A stretch of 64,000 bases of DNA from Chthoniobacterales bacterium. Its GTDB lineage: Bacteria; Verrucomicrobiota; Verrucomicrobiia; Chthoniobacterales; Chthoniobacteraceae. Shown piece by piece: positions 42,001 to 48,000 of the stretch. How positions within the stretch are numbered: position 1 is the stretch's first letter; every line of letters starts with the position of its first letter. The stretch spans positions 139,984-203,983 of the forward strand of contig JBBQZX010000006.1 of the NCBI GenBank assembly GCA_038207335.1. The letters run 5' to 3'. The position numbers are program-made.

Positions 42001-45000
42001 CGAGGTCCCCCGTGCCCCCCTGGGTGGCGAGGCCGTAGCGGCCCATCGACTGCGAGGAGAGCAGCAGCAGCGCGTAGATCGAGGAGGTACTCGGATCACC
42101 GACGTCGATCGAGCCGAGATCGCCGGGGATCGTCACCCCGAGGAGATCGAGTCCCGTGGCGTTGACGCGGCCGACATTCACGTGGCCGTCGCCGAGCGGC
42201 CCGCGCTTGGCCGTCACGGTGAGGTTCGTGCTGGCAAAAGCGGTCGGGTTCAGGGTGAAGTCGATGACTTGCAAATGCCGCGGATGCGTGGCATCGGCAT
42301 CGCTAAAGACGAGCACGCCCGCCGCCGCGAGGTCGGCATTGACACCTTTGCTCGAGCTGACGGTGACGAGGTCGCCATCGAGGTCGGTGAAGGTAAAGAC
42401 GGCGGCGGGAGCGATCCGGGCTTCGAGGGGTTCGATGTTCATTTCGCGGACCTTCAAGTGAACGCTGGTGAAGCGCGAGAGAGATCGGCGGCATCCTGGC
42501 CTTCGCCCTTCACCGGGCACGCTCGTGCGGGGTTCGGATGAGAAAAGATGACGGGGTGGCGGAGCCGAACTCGACGAGGAGGTTTGAATCGTTCACGCCG
42601 AGGATGGTGGCGAGAGCGAGGCGGCATCCGAGGGGCTCGAAGTGGCTGGGGAAGTGGTCGTGATAGTCCCGCGAAGCCCCGCTTCCGGCAGAGATGCCTC
42701 GGACATAGCAGCTTTGTTTCATCACTGGCCCGGATGATGCAAGCGACGTTTGCGTGCTTGGCGAAAGTTCCCGCTCGTTCCCAAAGTTAGCGCAGCGCTT
42801 TGGGGACGAGAGACGAACTTGTGAAAGCGAGGACAGCGCGCAGCGCACCCCACGGAGAGTTCAGACTTGCGCGATTTTTTGAACGAAGCAGTCGCGGCTC
42901 TTCAGTCGGCCGCGCGGCCGGGTTCGCGCCGGCCGTTGCCGGGCCGCTTCGTGAGCGCATCGCCGAGGTCTTCGCGCGCCGTTTCGGCGAGGGCTTCGAG
43001 GCGTTTGACGACTTCGGGGTGCTCGCCGGCCACGTCCTGCGTCTCGCTCACATCGTTGCTGAGATGGTAGAGTTCGCGCCCGATTTCCTGCATCCGGTAT
43101 TGGCCGGGGATGCCGTCCTTTCCCGGAGTCTGGCCCTGCATGGTGCGGGACTTGTGGGGGAAGAAGAGTTTCCAATCGCCGCTGCGGACCGCCTGCAGCG
43201 CGTTGGTGTCGTAGTAGAAAAAGTAGGCGTCATGCGGGTTTTTCGCGCCGGGGGCGCCGGTGAAGAGCGGCCAGATGTCGAGGCCGTCGATCCTTTGCGC
43301 GGGGAGTTCCGCGCCGATGAGCCGGGCCACGGTGGGGAAGACATCGATGGTCATGGCGACCTCATCGCAGACGGTGTTCGCGGGGATTTTCCCCGGCCAG
43401 CGCGCGATGAACGGCTCGCGGTGCCCGCCGTCGAAGGTCGTCCCTTTCCCCTCGCGCAACGGGCTCGCGGAGCCGGCGTGATTGCCGTAGCTGAGCCACG
43501 GGCCGTTGTCGGAGGTGAAGATGACGAGGGTGTTTTCGTCGAGGCCGTTGCGCTTCAAGGCACCGAGGATTTCGCCGACGGCCCAGTCGATTTCCATGAT
43601 GACGTCGCCATAGAGACCGAGCTCGGATTTGCCGCGGAATTTATCGCTCACATGCAGCGGGACGTGCGGCATATTCGGCGTGACGTAGAGGAAGAAGGGG
43701 TGGCCTTTATTTCGCTCGATGAAGGAGACGGCGTGCTCGGCGTACTGCGTGGTGAGCTGCTCTTGATCCTCGTGCGTGAGGCCGATTTTGATCTGCTTTT
43801 CGCCATCGTAGAGCGGCAGCGGCGGGAACTTCGACTCGGGGTGCAGCGGCCACATGTCGTTCGAGTAGGGCAGGCCGAAATACTCGTCGAAGCCGTGCCG
43901 GGTCGGGAGAAATTGCGGGCGATCACCGAGATGCCATTTGCCGAAGATCGCCGTCGCGTAGCCGCGTGATTTCGCGAGCTGCGCGAGCGTCACTTCGTGG
44001 TCGCTGAGGCCGACTTTGGAGCCGGGCGGGAGCGCGCCGTTGATGCCGAGGCGGTTGGGATAACAGCCGGTGAGCAGCGCCACGCGCGACGCCGAGCAAA
44101 CCGGCTGCGCGGCGTGCCAGTCCGTGAAGCGCCGGCCTTCGCGCGCCATCCGATCGAGGTTCGGTGTCTGAAAACCTTTCGCGCCGAAGACGCCGACATC
44201 CGCGTAGCCTTGGTCGTCGGTGAAAATGATGACGACGTTCGGAGGGCGCGCGTCCGCGAAAACGTGAGCGGCGGCGAGCAGGACGGCGGCGAAAACAGCT
44301 AGGAGGGAGCGCATGGCGAAGTCGTAGCCAGCGCGGCGGTGCTCGCCAAACTTTCCGTGCCGGGAGGCGCGGGGCTATCGGCTGCGCGGCTCGACGCCGA
44401 GGAGATTGCGGACGAAGAAATCCATGCGGCGGCGGGCGGCGTAAGGGCTTTCTCCGGCGCCGTGTCCCGCGCCGGGGACGATGAGGAGGTCGAAGTCTTT
44501 GTCGGCTTTGATGAGGGCGTTGACGACCTGCATCGAGGAGGAGGGGTCCACGTTTTTGTCGAGTTCGGCGAAGGTCAGGAAGAGCTTGCCCGTGAGCTGG
44601 TTGGCGTGCGTGACGTTGGAGTTATCCGCGTATTCGGGGCCGACGGGCCAGCCCATCCACGCCTCGTTCCACCAGATTTTATCCATTCGATTGTCGTGGC
44701 ATCCGCAGTCGGCGGCGGCGGCTTTGTAAAATTCGCCGTGGAAAAGGAGCGCGCCGAGCGCGCTCTGCCCGCCGGCGCTGCCGCCGTAGATTCCGACGCG
44801 GGTGAGGTCCATTTCGGGGCGCGTTTTCGCGGCCGCCTGCATCCACGCGATGCGGTCGGGGAAGCCGGCGTCTTTCAAGTTTTTCCAGCAGACATCGTGG
44901 AAGGCGCGCGAACGCCAGTTCGTGCCCATGCCGTCGATTTGGACGACGATGAAACCGAGTTCGGCGATGCTCCGCTGCTGGATTTCCAAGCCCCATTCCT

Positions 45001-48000
45001 TCGGCACAAACGCATCGTGCGGCCCAGCGTAAATCTTTTCGATCACGGGATATTTTTTTGCCGGATCGAAGTTGGAGGGGCAAATGATGATGCCGAAAAT
45101 GTCGGTCGTGCCGTCGCGCCCTTTCGCGGTGAAACGCTCGGGCGCGCGCCAGCCGGTGGCGGTCAGTTTTTCGGCGTCGGCAGATTGGAGCGGGCAGACG
45201 AGTTGCCCGTCTTCGGCGCGGCGCAGCACGGTCGTCGGTGGCAAATCGACGCGCGACCAAGTGTCGAGCAGCCAGCGGCTGTCGGGTGAAAATTCCCAGC
45301 GATGGGTGCCGTCGCCTTCAGTGAGAATCGTGAGTCCGGTGCCGTCGAAATTCACCCGCCCGAGGTGCAGAAAGTACGGGTCTTCGCCGGGGCGAATGCC
45401 GGACGCGGTGAACCAAATCTGCCGTCGCTCGGGATCGACGCGCTCGACTTTCCGCACGACCCATGCGCCGCGCGTGATTTGATTTTTCACCTGCCCGGTC
45501 GCGCTGTCGTAGAGCCACAAATGATTCCAGCCGTCGCGCTCAGACATCCAGATGATCTCGTTGGAGGCGTCGAGAAAGCGCAGGAAAGTCTTCTGCGAAT
45601 AGTCGATGAAAGTGGGGCTCCGCTCCTCGACCAGCACGCTCGTTTCGCCGCTCGCGGCATCGACCGCGACGACGCGCAGGAGCTGATGTCCGCGCTGGTT
45701 GAAGAGGAAGGTGAAGCGGCTGGAGTCCGGCGCCCAGCGGAGCTCGGAGATGTTCCAGGGGTTCTGGAAAAGGGCGTCATCGACGGGGGTTTCGCGGCGC
45801 GTGGTGAGGTCGAAGAGGCGGGGTTTCTCGATGTCCACGCGGTCGCCGGCCTTCGGGTAGGAAAGCTCGTGGACCTTTGGCTGGAGCTGATCCGCGGGCG
45901 ATGACTCGATGAGGGTGAGCTTGCGGGAATCGCCTTTTTTGACCTGCCGCACGATGACCTTTGTGCCATCGGGGGAGATGAGGACGGGCTCTTCGAAGGC
46001 ATTCTCCGCGGTGCCGTCGGTGCTCAAGCGGACTTCTTCTTTCGTCTCGCGATTGGTGGCGAAGACATTCGCATCCCGCACGAAAACGCGCCACTGAGCG
46101 ACGGCTTTTCCCTCCGCCGATGTGGGTGAGACCGCAGCCCGCTCCGGTTCCACGCGCGGCTCGAGGATGGCCTCCGCCTCGCTGTCCGCGCCCTCGAAGA
46201 CTCCGAGCGTACGCCCGCTCTTCGCCACGAAGAGCCACACATGGCCGACGAATGTGTGCTGCCGCCGCGTCTCGCCTGGCTTCAAGGTGGCGTAGCGCAC
46301 GCGCGCACCGGAGGGATCGATCCAGAAGCAGTCGGCCTCCTCGGTCGTGTGATTGACGAAGGTGATCGCCGTCTCGTCCGCGGAATTGCGGCTCGGTCGC
46401 GCCTTAATGTCCGCCGGGAGCGTTGGCAGCGCGCCGCCTTCCGCAGGCCGGACTTCGTATTTTTGAAGATCGCATTCCCACCGCTTCCCCTCACTGCTGA
46501 AGCGCACCCAGCCCTCGCCAAATTCCAGCCGATCGATCCGCAGGCGCTCGGCGTCCGCCGGCTTTTTCGCGGCCACAGCGAGTGCCGTCGCGAGCCGTGC
46601 GTGATCGAAAGCCGGGCGCATTTCGCCTTTCGCCGCATCGACGAGCACGAACTCACTCCGCCCCTCGGGCTTTTCCTTCACAAACCAAAACGCCACGTTT
46701 CCCGCGAGCCACTGCGGCCGCACCTTTCCCCCGATGACCTTGCCAGCAAACAGCCTCCCGAGCGAAGCCGCCCGCTCGTAATCCGCCCGCGTGCCCTGCG
46801 CGTGAGCGTTGGTGAAAGGCGCGAGCGCGAGTACGCAGCAAAGAGAGAAGGGTCGGTAGAATCGGTGCATGACACCTACTCCCAGCGGGAGCTTTTGCTG
46901 CCGGCGAAGGCGACGAAGAGGCCGAGGATCACATGAAATGTGAGCACCCAAATGGCCAACTCCAGCGAGGCGAGGGGAGTCTTCGTGACGAGCTGAATGG
47001 CTTCGTAGTAACGCGTATCGCGAAACGTCTGGATGAAGCCTGACCAGCCCCAAAATGAGGCGATGAATGGGCGCGTAATCCAGCCCAGCGCGGCCGGCAG
47101 CGCGAGGACGGCACCGCTGAGCGGAAGTTGGAAGCCAACGAGGTAGACCGAAACGAGCGAGGCTTGCTCCGCGCTTTTCATCAGGCTGGAAAGGCCGAGG
47201 CAGATCGATGTGAGCGCGCCGTTCACGAGTGTCAGGAGCGCGATTTGAATGATCAGATTTCCCGGAAGGCGGACGATGAGATTGACGAAGACGGCCATCC
47301 AGACGGACTGCGCGATGACGAGAGTGCCGAGAAATGCGGCTTTCGATGCGATGTAGGATGCGGGGCGGAGGCCGGCGAATTTTTCCTTTTCAAAGATGAG
47401 GCGCTCCGAGGCGATCTCGCGCGCAGCGTTGTTCGAGCCGGTGAGAGCGAGGAGGATGACCTGGAACATGACGAGGCCGGAGACGAGGCCGCCGGCTTGG
47501 ATGAATTCCGTGCGGTGGGCGAGTTCGGCCTGGATCTGTGCGAGGACTCCGCCGGAATCGCCAGTGAGCATCTTCAACTGCGGCAACCCATCGAGCGCGA
47601 AGATGACGACGAGGCACGGAAATCCGACTAGGAGCGCGAGCTGCAAAAAGAGCTGTCCGCGATCACGCACGAAGAGGCGCCAGCGGCGGGTGAGAAGAAC
47701 GGCGAACTGCGCAAAGGCTGATGGGGGCTTGGTTTCCGGGGCATCCGCGGGCCGCAGCGCATCCGGCGCGGGCTCGGCAGCGCCGGGCTCGAGGACGGGC
47801 TGTTGCTGCCATTGGTTGCTGGCGGCGGCGAGCTCGACGAGTGGTTTCGGGGCCGTGCGGGAGGCGAGTTCGGCGTAGTAGGCGGCGCGGTTTTTCTGCC
47901 AGGAGCGGTGCCAGTCCTCGGGGCGGCGGACGGCGAGTTGAGGGTAGAGTTCATCGGGGTGCGCGACTCCGAAGTAGTGTAGCAGCGTATCAGGTGCGCC

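Follow-up and report, generated by a model that had tools for sequence, protein, structure and literature searches.

A VHL beta domain with a conserved hydroxyproline-type pocket inserted in a probably exported S9-family peptidase of a Chthoniobacterales bacterium

The window analysed comprises 64,000 nt of the Chthoniobacterales bacterium assembly GCA_038207335.1 (contig JBBQZX010000006.1, 139,984-203,983), and all coordinates are given as positions within it (Table 1). An open reading frame on the minus strand (46870..44375) opens with an ATG, encodes 831 aa free of internal stops and is immediately preceded by an SD-like GTAGGTG; no sigma-70-like promoter was found within 42.4-48.8 kb. Adjacency of the upstream ABC-2-type transporter gene was not kept among the loci of 8 relatives. 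A local operon context with the downstream sulfatase was rejected as incidental, as it was kept in 1 of these 8 loci and a sulfatase lay within 1.5 kb of the peptidase gene in 6 of 96 peptidase loci; the genome itself carries 32 sulfatase-like ORFs.

Table 1. Features of the peptidase locus, in window coordinates
Feature	Position	Strand	Evidence
831-aa, probably exported S9 peptidase gene with VHL beta insert (P0001)	44375..46870	-	ORF, Pfam
Predicted Sec signal peptide, residues 1-24 (A-H-A↓Q)	46799..46870	-	Script, homologue conservation, low pLDDT
N-terminal helix and first beta-propeller strands, residues 25-142	46445..46798	-	Full-length model
VHL beta domain, residues ~157-238, propeller insert	46157..46402	-	Pfam, phmmer, profile, model, fold search
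Putative Hyp-pocket codons (six)	46235..46324	-	Ungapped alignment, conservation in 120 sequences
Individual pocket codons	W183 46322-24; Y193 46292-94; H205 46256-58; T206 46253-55; H210 46241-43; W212 46235-37	-	
Flexible linker, residues 239-257	46100..46156	-	pLDDT <50 at 240-256; variable and gapped among homologues
Remaining beta-propeller, DPPIV_N 258-545	45236..46099	-	Pfam; double-Glu helix deletion near residues 286-298
Alpha/beta-hydrolase domain, triad S698/D771/H803, oxyanion Y614	44378..45148	-	
Altered S1 pocket of the hydrolase domain: A699, C724, N727, D730, K731, W734	44378..45148	-	
Sulfatase, downstream, same direction; context only	42902..44314	-	Adjacency kept in 1/8 relatives' loci
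ABC-2-type transporter, upstream, 5 nt before the peptidase ATG; context only	46876..48645	-	

The predicted signal peptide, scored by a simple script and not by SignalP, has an h-region of KD 2.6 followed by the cleavage site. Of the 106 homologues with an N-terminus of sufficient length, 98 had a hydrophobic stretch and 103 had Ala or Gly at -1; Q25-G26 was almost invariant (114 homologues). Residues 1-23 had a pLDDT below 50 in the full-length model. The peptidase is probably exported, and a periplasmic location is suggested. The genome-wide survey's note had described the protein as secreted; the export signal stands, but the periplasm is as likely a location as the medium, and oligopeptides, not intact collagen, may therefore be the substrate.

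Residues ~157-238 are a genuine VHL beta domain inserted in the peptidase propeller, which confirms the earlier recognition of a VHL-like domain in an S9-family protein. The Pfam VHL family matched residues 160-215 (E 3.7e-9, 36.9 bits against a gathering cut-off of 21), and in a phmmer search of the PDB with residues 140-250 pVHL made up the top 24 of the 27 sequences listed (E 8.5e-6 to 5e-5). Residues 160-215 aligned without gaps to pVHL 65-120; the previously reported alignment (159-215 to 63-119) is off by 1-2 residues. A profile built from 15 bacterial domains retrieved pVHL at E 7e-14, with the next match at E 0.3. AlphaFold modelled the domain from a 115-row alignment with a pLDDT of 93.9. 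Among 48,161 PDB representatives compared with this model, pVHL took the first two places (Z 13.7, rmsd 1.2 A over 83 residues, 29% identity) and the next-best fold reached Z 7.9; Foldseek gave pVHL entries alone among the matches listed. The model superposes on pVHL 63-155, a seven-stranded beta-sandwich (PF01847; 1VCB, 1LM8, 4AJY, 7KHH). The match stops at pVHL 155, where the chain runs on into the propeller, and the alpha domain that binds Elongin C/Cul2 is absent. In contrast to human pVHL, the bacterial protein has no alpha domain or BC-box and no ubiquitin ligase, and carries the domain as an insert in a probably exported peptidase.

The pVHL residues W88, Y98, H110, S111, H115 and W117, whose pocket roles are described in PMC9528729, correspond within this ungapped 56-residue core to W183, Y193, H205, T206, H210 and W212, with Thr in place of Ser111. 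These six were conserved at 100, 100, 96, 99, 100 and 100% in 120 sequences, compared to a domain mean of 68%, which bears out the survey's claim that five hydroxyproline (Hyp)-pocket residues are kept. They are among the most conserved columns of the domain, and N173 and F171 (pVHL N78 and F76) are equally conserved. The flanking subsites differ from those of pVHL (F91 to P186, I109 to Q204, R69 to A164). The H115 equivalent was present in 77 of 77 S9-inserted domains and replaced in 18 of the 21 domains fused to GH127; being dispensable in whole subfamilies yet kept in the S9 inserts, it is not merely structural. All five pocket residues were retained in only 222 of 405 complete segments of the wider family. 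Conservation of this kind supports Hyp binding as a probable role of the domain.

The remainder of the protein gave Pfam matches to DPPIV_N (258-545) and Peptidase_S9 (632-823), and its N-terminal region matches the DPP IV/PTP-A propellers in fold. An alpha/beta hydrolase, a Ser-Asp-His triad and an N-terminal propeller, as in family S9, were all found, with S698/D771/H803 set in G-x-S-x-G-G and unchanged in 79 of 79 homologues. Comparison with family S9B (P. mexicana DAP IV 5YP1, P. gingivalis DPP4 5OLJ and PTP-A 2D5L, B. thetaiotaomicron btDPP4) showed a common propeller and hydrolase, triad, oxyanion Tyr and dimer-arm motif, but ~20% structural identity and GGSAGG in place of GWSYGG. The double-Glu helix of PgDPP4/PTP-A, a DPP IV feature that binds the free N-terminus of the substrate (PMC5807507), falls within an 11-14-residue deletion, and no conserved Glu was found at this position among the homologues. 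In the P1 proline pocket Y614 (Tyr547) is kept, whereas Tyr662, Asp663 and Tyr666 are replaced by Asp730, Lys731 and Trp734 in all 79 homologues (DPP IV residues carry the numbers of the human enzyme, transferred via PmDAP IV). The earlier assignment as a DPP-IV/prolyl peptidase was therefore not upheld: its sequence places the enzyme outside DPP IV, that is S9B sensu stricto, a 'prolyl dipeptidyl' activity is unproven and 'prolyl peptidase' is a family name only. Cleavage as an oligo- or endopeptidase would be likelier than as a classical dipeptidyl aminopeptidase. The acylpeptidyl oligopeptidase of P. gingivalis (AOP, S9C) prefers N-blocked peptides (PMC8048996).

The VHL insert was missing from 13 of the 79 near-full-length homologues, which share an identical active site, and its history includes at least 4-6 losses or gains. 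This modularity bears on whether the insert is a structural lid or an interaction domain, replacing the double-Glu helix or binding a partner, with its conserved residues serving as core or interface. Such a role would account for N173 and F171 being as conserved as the pocket, and the insert is located among the first blades of the propeller, on the N-terminal side, in the region of the substrate-binding Arg106 insertion of PmDAP IV (PMC5807507). Against this, the insert-less homologues keep the same active site, the domain is C-terminal in 3 other copies and occurs on unrelated enzymes, and a disordered linker flanks it; the probability of a structural role is considered very low.

The genome encodes a 4-Hyp operon on contig C28, comprising DHDPS-like, PepP, zincin, epimerase, D-amino-acid dehydrogenase, DUF885 and POT genes. 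The best match of its epimerase was 4-Hyp epimerase at 435 bits (cut-off 442), compared to 210 of 556 for proline racemase. The gene set is that of the bacterial t4Hyp pathway (4HypE, DAAO-family oxidase, DHDPS-family deaminase, KGSA dehydrogenase; PMC4113996), which also surrounds VHL-peptidase genes of relatives. The VHL-peptidase gene itself lies on contig C6, unlinked to this operon, as the survey's note had recognised. Homologues of the C28 zincin frequently carry the VHL domain, VHL-fused proteins matching it at E 1e-80 to 1e-95; a single protein joining zincin, VHL and this S9 peptidase was also observed. Among 80 zincin loci the epimerase was present in 7, and 4 of those 7 contained the VHL-peptidase gene, compared to 0 of the other 73. 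These four operons (L068, L077, L082, L128), from Verrucomicrobiota or an unlabelled bacterium, have three gene orders, and in the three of their genomes that were tested the VHL-peptidase carried the only VHL domain found. A DUF885-VHL-zincin fusion lies inside one of six relatives' Hyp operons from the window's family.

At genome level, uncorrected for genome size or kinship, the epimerase family was found in 4 of 14 VHL-bearing and 14 of 286 other genomes of the same phylum, in 20 of 51 and 26 of 200 in Planctomycetota, and co-occurred with the peptidase among relatives in 5 of 9 as compared to 3 of 31. It was absent from 10 of the 14 and 31 of the 51 VHL-bearing genomes. When loci were chosen by the peptidase, the epimerase was adjacent in just one of the 80 loci from metagenomes (median 8.5 kb), where the contig ends and the peptidase gene may or may not carry the VHL domain, and in none of 13 phylum or 8 relatives' loci. 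An approximate Poisson calculation of adjacency was discarded, one of its loci having been selected for being adjacent. No VHL-peptidase was found among 38 epimerase neighbourhoods from two phylum samples. VHL-zincin fusions showed no preference for Hyp operons (1 of 7, compared to 31 of 73), and the epimerase family was missing from 4 of the 5 genomes with such a fusion that were tested, among them all 3 Poribacteria. The Hyp-reader function proposed earlier thus gains from pocket, operon and fusion context and loses from most carriers not adjoining Hyp genes.

The same peptidase without a VHL domain was found in 2 of these 38 neighbourhoods, both among 20 planctomycete Hyp neighbourhoods, which raises the possibility that the peptidase accounts for the association with the operons and the domain is a passenger. 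Proteins rich in Hyp are rich in Pro as well, and the link could for this reason arise from the peptidase alone while the domain binds proline or other peptides in general, with no preference for the hydroxyl. Repeated loss or gain of the insert, the attachment of the domain to many proteins of unrelated kinds, its presence in repeats that look cytoplasmic, and the fact that three of the five pocket residues form an aromatic cage fitting a plain prolyl ring all agree with such binding. The hydroxyl-reading T206 and H210, however, vary no more than the aromatic residues across the peptidase family, although the His is replaceable elsewhere without loss of the domain, and we regard general binding as unlikely.

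In the wider family the domain caps a clade of GH127 arabinofuranosidases (21 of 120 matches listed), the first member of GH127 acting on Hyp-linked arabinosides (PMC10850190). Other partners have no Hyp connection (TIR, SAM, calpain, MACPF, patatin, lipase, CAP, ricin-B). A carbohydrate-binding (CBM-like) role, in which Trp, Tyr and His would bind a monosaccharide or a glycan of the cell wall and tether hydrolases of several kinds, is suggested by the GH127 cap, located where distant relatives have an F5/8-type module, by copies on sulfatases and sialate acetylesterases and by co-occurrence with ricin-B, DM9, L-type lectin and galactose-oxidase domains. The best CBM nevertheless reached at most Z 5.3, compared to 13.7 for pVHL, most copies in the genome samples are on peptidases, and the glycan-enzyme copies form one His-less clade separate from the domain of this peptidase, which makes sugar binding improbable. 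This clade (SH 92) includes two S9 peptidases and LRR proteins and points to about one event; the idea that independent His losses track glycan-acting partners is on this account no more than a hypothesis. A word-index search for shorter stand-alone relatives gave 21 candidates, none significant, a null that is uninformative because HMMER finds many. A viral fold library gave a single weak match (E 1.5e-4).

A bacterial parallel of oxygen sensing, in which the domain would read self-made prolyl hydroxylation and target hydroxylated host proteins for proteolysis, shares its reader-plus-protease logic with pVHL. Prolyl hydroxylases exist in bacteria, and prolyl hydroxylation occurs on Pseudomonas EF-Tu. 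The genome, 94.7% complete, gave no match to the prolyl hydroxylase family PF13640, and any Hyp ligand would therefore be foreign; with a probably exported peptidase and catabolic neighbours in relatives, self-recognition is hardly credible.

The reading that we favour, at somewhat better than even probability, is that the protein is an exported S9 peptidase of an uncharacterised DPP IV-like subfamily for breakdown of Hyp/Pro-rich peptides, its VHL domain being an optional Hyp-binding substrate module, comparable to a carbohydrate-binding module on a glycosidase, that feeds Hyp catabolism. The aromatic cage W183/Y193/W212 would grip 4-hydroxyproline in the pVHL manner, T206 and H210 would read its hydroxyl, and Hyp-containing peptides would be kept close to the active site. 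Short peptides released could be taken up via a POT transporter and completed by PepP, 4-Hyp epimerase, D-Hyp dehydrogenase, DHDPS-type deaminase and aldehyde dehydrogenase, all encoded elsewhere in the genome. Collagen fragments or plant/algal Hyp-rich glycoproteins may be the source. Compared to the pathway of PMC4113996, the PVC operons additionally encode exported peptidases (this S9 subfamily, zincin, DUF885, PepP), a POT importer and a PAS-AraC regulator, a gene content that reads as peptide-level rather than free-amino-acid uptake.

The survey's note had proposed that the module would be new in prokaryotes. Pfam already includes VHL beta domains from bacteria, and they are mentioned in two papers, on a retron type X accessory protein (PMC7736814) and a secreted Litorilituus sediminis protein (PMC9002001), whose available portions do not discuss a bacterial Hyp pocket, peptidase fusion or Hyp catabolism; no paper linking bacterial VHL domains to Hyp was found, and only the function would be new. 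More speculatively, and doubtful in our view, the domain (>7,500 sequence clusters) could be an old, widespread bacterial Hyp-binding module, CBM-like for Hyp-rich proteins. The His-containing pocket on peptidases would then read a free 4-OH, the His-less subtype on arabinofuranosidases, sulfatases and esterases would read O-substituted Hyp, the polar S1 pocket of the non-DPP S9 partner would take Hyp, and animal pVHL would be a later recruitment into oxygen sensing.

As related genes lie inside Hyp-degrading operons and the domain is a true VHL relative, bacteria probably use the pocket to find Hyp-rich food. The bacterial VHL beta domain, whose prokaryotic role is given as unknown in the available text of PMC7736814, thereby gains a first function that is open to testing. 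If binding is true, the domain would be an 85-residue stand-alone Hyp reader that does not need Elongin B/C, a useful reagent for detecting prolyl hydroxylation and a surrogate for VHL-ligand work, and it would become worth asking where the oxygen-sensing reader of animals arose. The finding points to an uncharacterised exported route by which Verrucomicrobiota and Planctomycetota may harvest Hyp from collagen or plant/algal wall glycoproteins.

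An S9 peptidase with a von Hippel-Lindau (VHL) beta domain inserted in its propeller, here called VHL-peptidase, was confirmed; it contains the sole VHL-family match of its genome, which has no second member of this peptidase subfamily. Its residues 160-215 align without gaps to residues 65-120 of the human protein (pVHL), and W183, Y193, H205, T206, H210 and W212 fall on W88, Y98, H110, S111, H115 and W117, the residues described as building the hydroxyproline (Hyp) site of pVHL, where S111 and H115 bond the hydroxyl (PMC9528729). Over 83 residues a domain model (pLDDT 93.9) superposed on pVHL 63-155 at 1.2 A with Z 13.7, the next-best of 48,161 chains scoring Z 7.9; Foldseek agreed, and a profile of 15 bacterial VHL domains found pVHL at E 7e-14 (next match 0.3). 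Across the 120 best homologues, which have 57-76% identity and, where named, belong mostly to Planctomycetota and Verrucomicrobiota, the pocket columns were 96-100% conserved versus 68% for the domain. The VHL fold and retained pocket residues claimed in the genome-wide survey's note are thereby upheld, as is its signal peptide, of Sec type and backed by a hydropathy script and 98 of 106 homologues. Export is predicted, and the destination may be either the periplasm or the medium. At 0.89, the GC3 of the insert does not fall below that of the rest of the gene (0.81), so it is no recent foreign piece.

Modelled at full length (pLDDT 84), the VHL-peptidase shows the fold of DPP IV with the triad intact. 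What defines DPP IV is a double-Glu helix gripping the free N-terminus, together with a proline pocket of Tyr547, Tyr662 and Tyr666 (PMC5807507). The position of this helix lies within an 11-14-residue deletion of the VHL-peptidase and, upon alignment to P. mexicana DAP IV, through which human numbers were assigned, Asp730, Lys731 and Trp734 stand at Tyr662, Asp663 and Tyr666; all three are the same in every one of 79 near-full-length homologues. The lost helix and rebuilt pocket rule out DPP IV identity, and the DPP-IV/prolyl peptidase assignment made earlier is not sustained; the label 'prolyl dipeptidyl' should be dropped. As loss of the Asp663 acid is tied to endopeptidase activity in FAP (PMC5807507), we infer that the enzyme is an endopeptidase or oligopeptidase whose S1 pocket is more polar; Hyp at P1 would fit there. 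Comparison with acylpeptidyl oligopeptidase (AOP) of P. gingivalis was drawn from PMC8048996.

The insert is missing from 13 of the 79 near-full-length homologues, which have the same active site, and three peptidase copies carry the domain at the C-terminus. A quick tree gave six gain or loss changes, at least four on well-supported branches, and the insert is, judging by these sequences, optional. A bacterial VHL profile matched 7,531 representatives at E <= 0.001. Pfam scanning of 144 of the best 150 matches (six long proteins omitted) found many with VHL domains only, in tandem, and otherwise S9 peptidases, astacin, calpain, CAP, ricin-B, MACPF, patatin, lipase, TIR, SAM, TPR and ankyrin as partners; a few repeat-rich matches are probably spurious, one having fn3 matches only. 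All five pocket residues were kept in 222 of 405 complete segments. The domain was present in 15 of 301 own-phylum genomes (Pfam model; the 14 other carriers have it on this peptidase subfamily in 13 cases and on a zincin in one) and in 51 of 251 Planctomycetota genomes (profile), and its atlas clusters are 61-90% bacterial. It behaves like an accessory module that moves among exported hydrolases. Proteins P0121-P0134 and P0142-P0147 (1,700-2,100 aa) hold up to 12 tandem VHL domains, with no signal peptide evident.

The pocket His was kept in 77/77 S9-inserted and 43/44 C-terminal zincin VHL domains and replaced by Ala, Asn or Ser in 18/21 GH127 domains. It is thus dispensable for the fold, so that its fixation on peptidases is functional; the His-less domains group as one clade, and the partner/His pattern is therefore close to a single event. 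A binder of proline peptides blind to the hydroxyl is unlikely, and a structural lid or interaction domain considerably more so. A sugar-binding module, which the GH127 and ricin-B partners might bring to mind, is also improbable, ranking between these two. Planctomycete sulfatases (L282, L288, L293, L297, L301, L315, L241) and sialate acetylesterases (L289, L298) likewise have a C-terminal His-less VHL domain.

The 4-Hyp operon of the genome, on contig C28, comprises a DHDPS-like gene, PepP, a signal-peptide zincin, epimerase, D-amino-acid dehydrogenase, DUF885 and a POT importer, the set described for the t4Hyp pathway in PMC4113996. The best model for the epimerase was 4-Hyp epimerase (435 bits, slightly below the 442 cut-off), and an aldehyde dehydrogenase homologue lies apart on contig C1. 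No Pfam family scored above cut-off for the zincin, and a solved relative was not found. Five VHL-bearing representatives have an N-terminal portion homologous to it (E 1e-80 to 1e-95). Its homologues occur in >590 GTDB stretches, and among the best 80 of them 32 are VHL-fused; the family is a candidate for Hyp/Pro endopeptidases. In one protein (P0256) two zincin domains are joined to VHL and this peptidase; in another (L281) the VHL-peptidase is fused to DUF885. The recurrence of DUF885 in Hyp operons, together with its fusions to the S9 peptidase or VHL-zincin (the latter in 1/6 Hyp operons of close relatives), suggests a further peptidase of the route.

Among 80 GTDB loci picked by zincin, 7 held the epimerase, and the VHL-peptidase gene was found in 4 of these versus 0/73 others. 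A PAS-AraC regulator is placed divergently ahead of four Verrucomicrobiota Hyp operons, one of which (L068) also contains a GH39 gene. Epimerase-family presence was raised in three samples, being 4/14 in VHL-bearing versus 14/286 other own-phylum genomes, 20/51 versus 26/200 in Planctomycetota, and 5/9 with versus 3/31 without the peptidase among relatives, kinship and genome size being ignored throughout. Of 120 GH127 matches listed, 21 carry VHL, all within the top 29 and forming a clade; the first GH127 member breaks down arabinosides freed from Ara3-Hyp (PMC10850190).

Positions of the features discussed (G000, this genome; L, loci; P, proteins)
Feature	Position	Strand	Remark
VHL-peptidase gene	window 46870..44375	minus	831-aa ORF; judged real
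Pfam VHL	residues 160-215		E 3.7e-9, above cut-off
Pfam DPPIV_N	residues 258-545		VHL-peptidase
Pfam Peptidase_S9	residues 632-823		VHL-peptidase
Signal-peptide zincin	G000:C28:8040-9230 (L017)		HEFGH...E; inside Hyp operon
DUF885 genes/fusions	G000:C28:11440-13233 (L017); L247:3653-7780; L281; L338
VHL-peptidase gene	L128		between epimerase and dehydrogenase
VHL-peptidase gene	L077		after epimerase; contig end cuts locus
VHL-peptidase gene	L068		first gene after PAS-AraC regulator
VHL-peptidase gene	L082		behind aldehyde dehydrogenase
PAS-AraC regulator genes	L128:5474-6253; L077:732-1508; L068:3827-4615; L051:3972-4823; G000:C31:67026-67805		last is own homologue
GH127 beta-L-arabinofuranosidases, C-terminal VHL	L309:1735-3951; P0271-P0299		H115-equivalent mostly Ala/Asn/Ser
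Glycine-rich repeat protein	window 40412-42520	minus	702 aa; N-terminal LEARIAPA motif; no Pfam match
AsmA-like ORF	window 48632-50086	minus	two frames in genome scan (C6:188666-189472, 189476-189940) and no clean translation; possibly internal stop or listing quirk
SUV3-type helicase	window 36747-38846	minus	family best known from mitochondria

Several counts run against the Hyp link. The VHL-peptidase gene is unlinked to the Hyp operon in its own genome and its neighbours are not conserved in relatives. In loci picked by peptidase, the epimerase was nearby in 1/80 from metagenomes (short, median 8.5 kb), 0/13 from the phylum and 0/8 from relatives; PepP, DUF885 or POT adjoined the peptidase in 4. 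Epimerase-picked neighbourhoods (from 20 of 46 planctomycete genomes plus the full 18 others of the own phylum) held no VHL-peptidase; two had this peptidase without VHL domain, and one, selected for that proximity, a VHL-sulfatase ~5 kb from the epimerase. VHL-zincin fusions were not enriched in Hyp operons (1/7 versus 31/73), and the epimerase is missing in most VHL carriers, including 3/3 Poribacteria tested (epimerase route only). GH127 enzymes also have other substrates, and the near-single event behind the His pattern likewise weighs against. The Hyp-operon link, on this evidence, is firm where the peptidase subfamily is concerned; for the VHL domain itself it is suggestive.

Bacterial VHL beta domains already have Pfam annotation and mentions in print. 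Their function in prokaryotes is called unknown in the retron type X paper (PMC7736814), a secreted Litorilituus protein is termed 'tumour suppressor' in an in-silico paper (PMC9002001), choanoflagellate and fungal homologues are treated in PMC9618697, whose relevant passages do not discuss bacterial ones, and the passages concerned in PMC3670738 and PMC9887271 only use the Pfam model. No publication was found that connects VHL domains of bacteria with hydroxyproline or with peptidases, most subscription journals and supplements lying outside the search. Of the proposed new prokaryotic module, novelty would lie in the function and not in the domain.

The Hyp-reader interpretation is partly supported: pocket conservation and the operon and fusion context speak for it and strengthen it, whereas the unlinked gene and the many carriers without epimerase speak against. 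A reader of self-made hydroxylation, for which prolyl hydroxylation of EF-Tu is a bacterial precedent, is the least probable reading; a search of the genome for PF13640 prolyl hydroxylases gave none. We consider it most likely, with reasonable rather than high confidence, that the VHL-peptidase would be exported to work on Hyp/Pro-rich peptides, that its VHL domain would serve as an accessory module binding Hyp, and that the peptide products would feed the POT/PepP/epimerase route.
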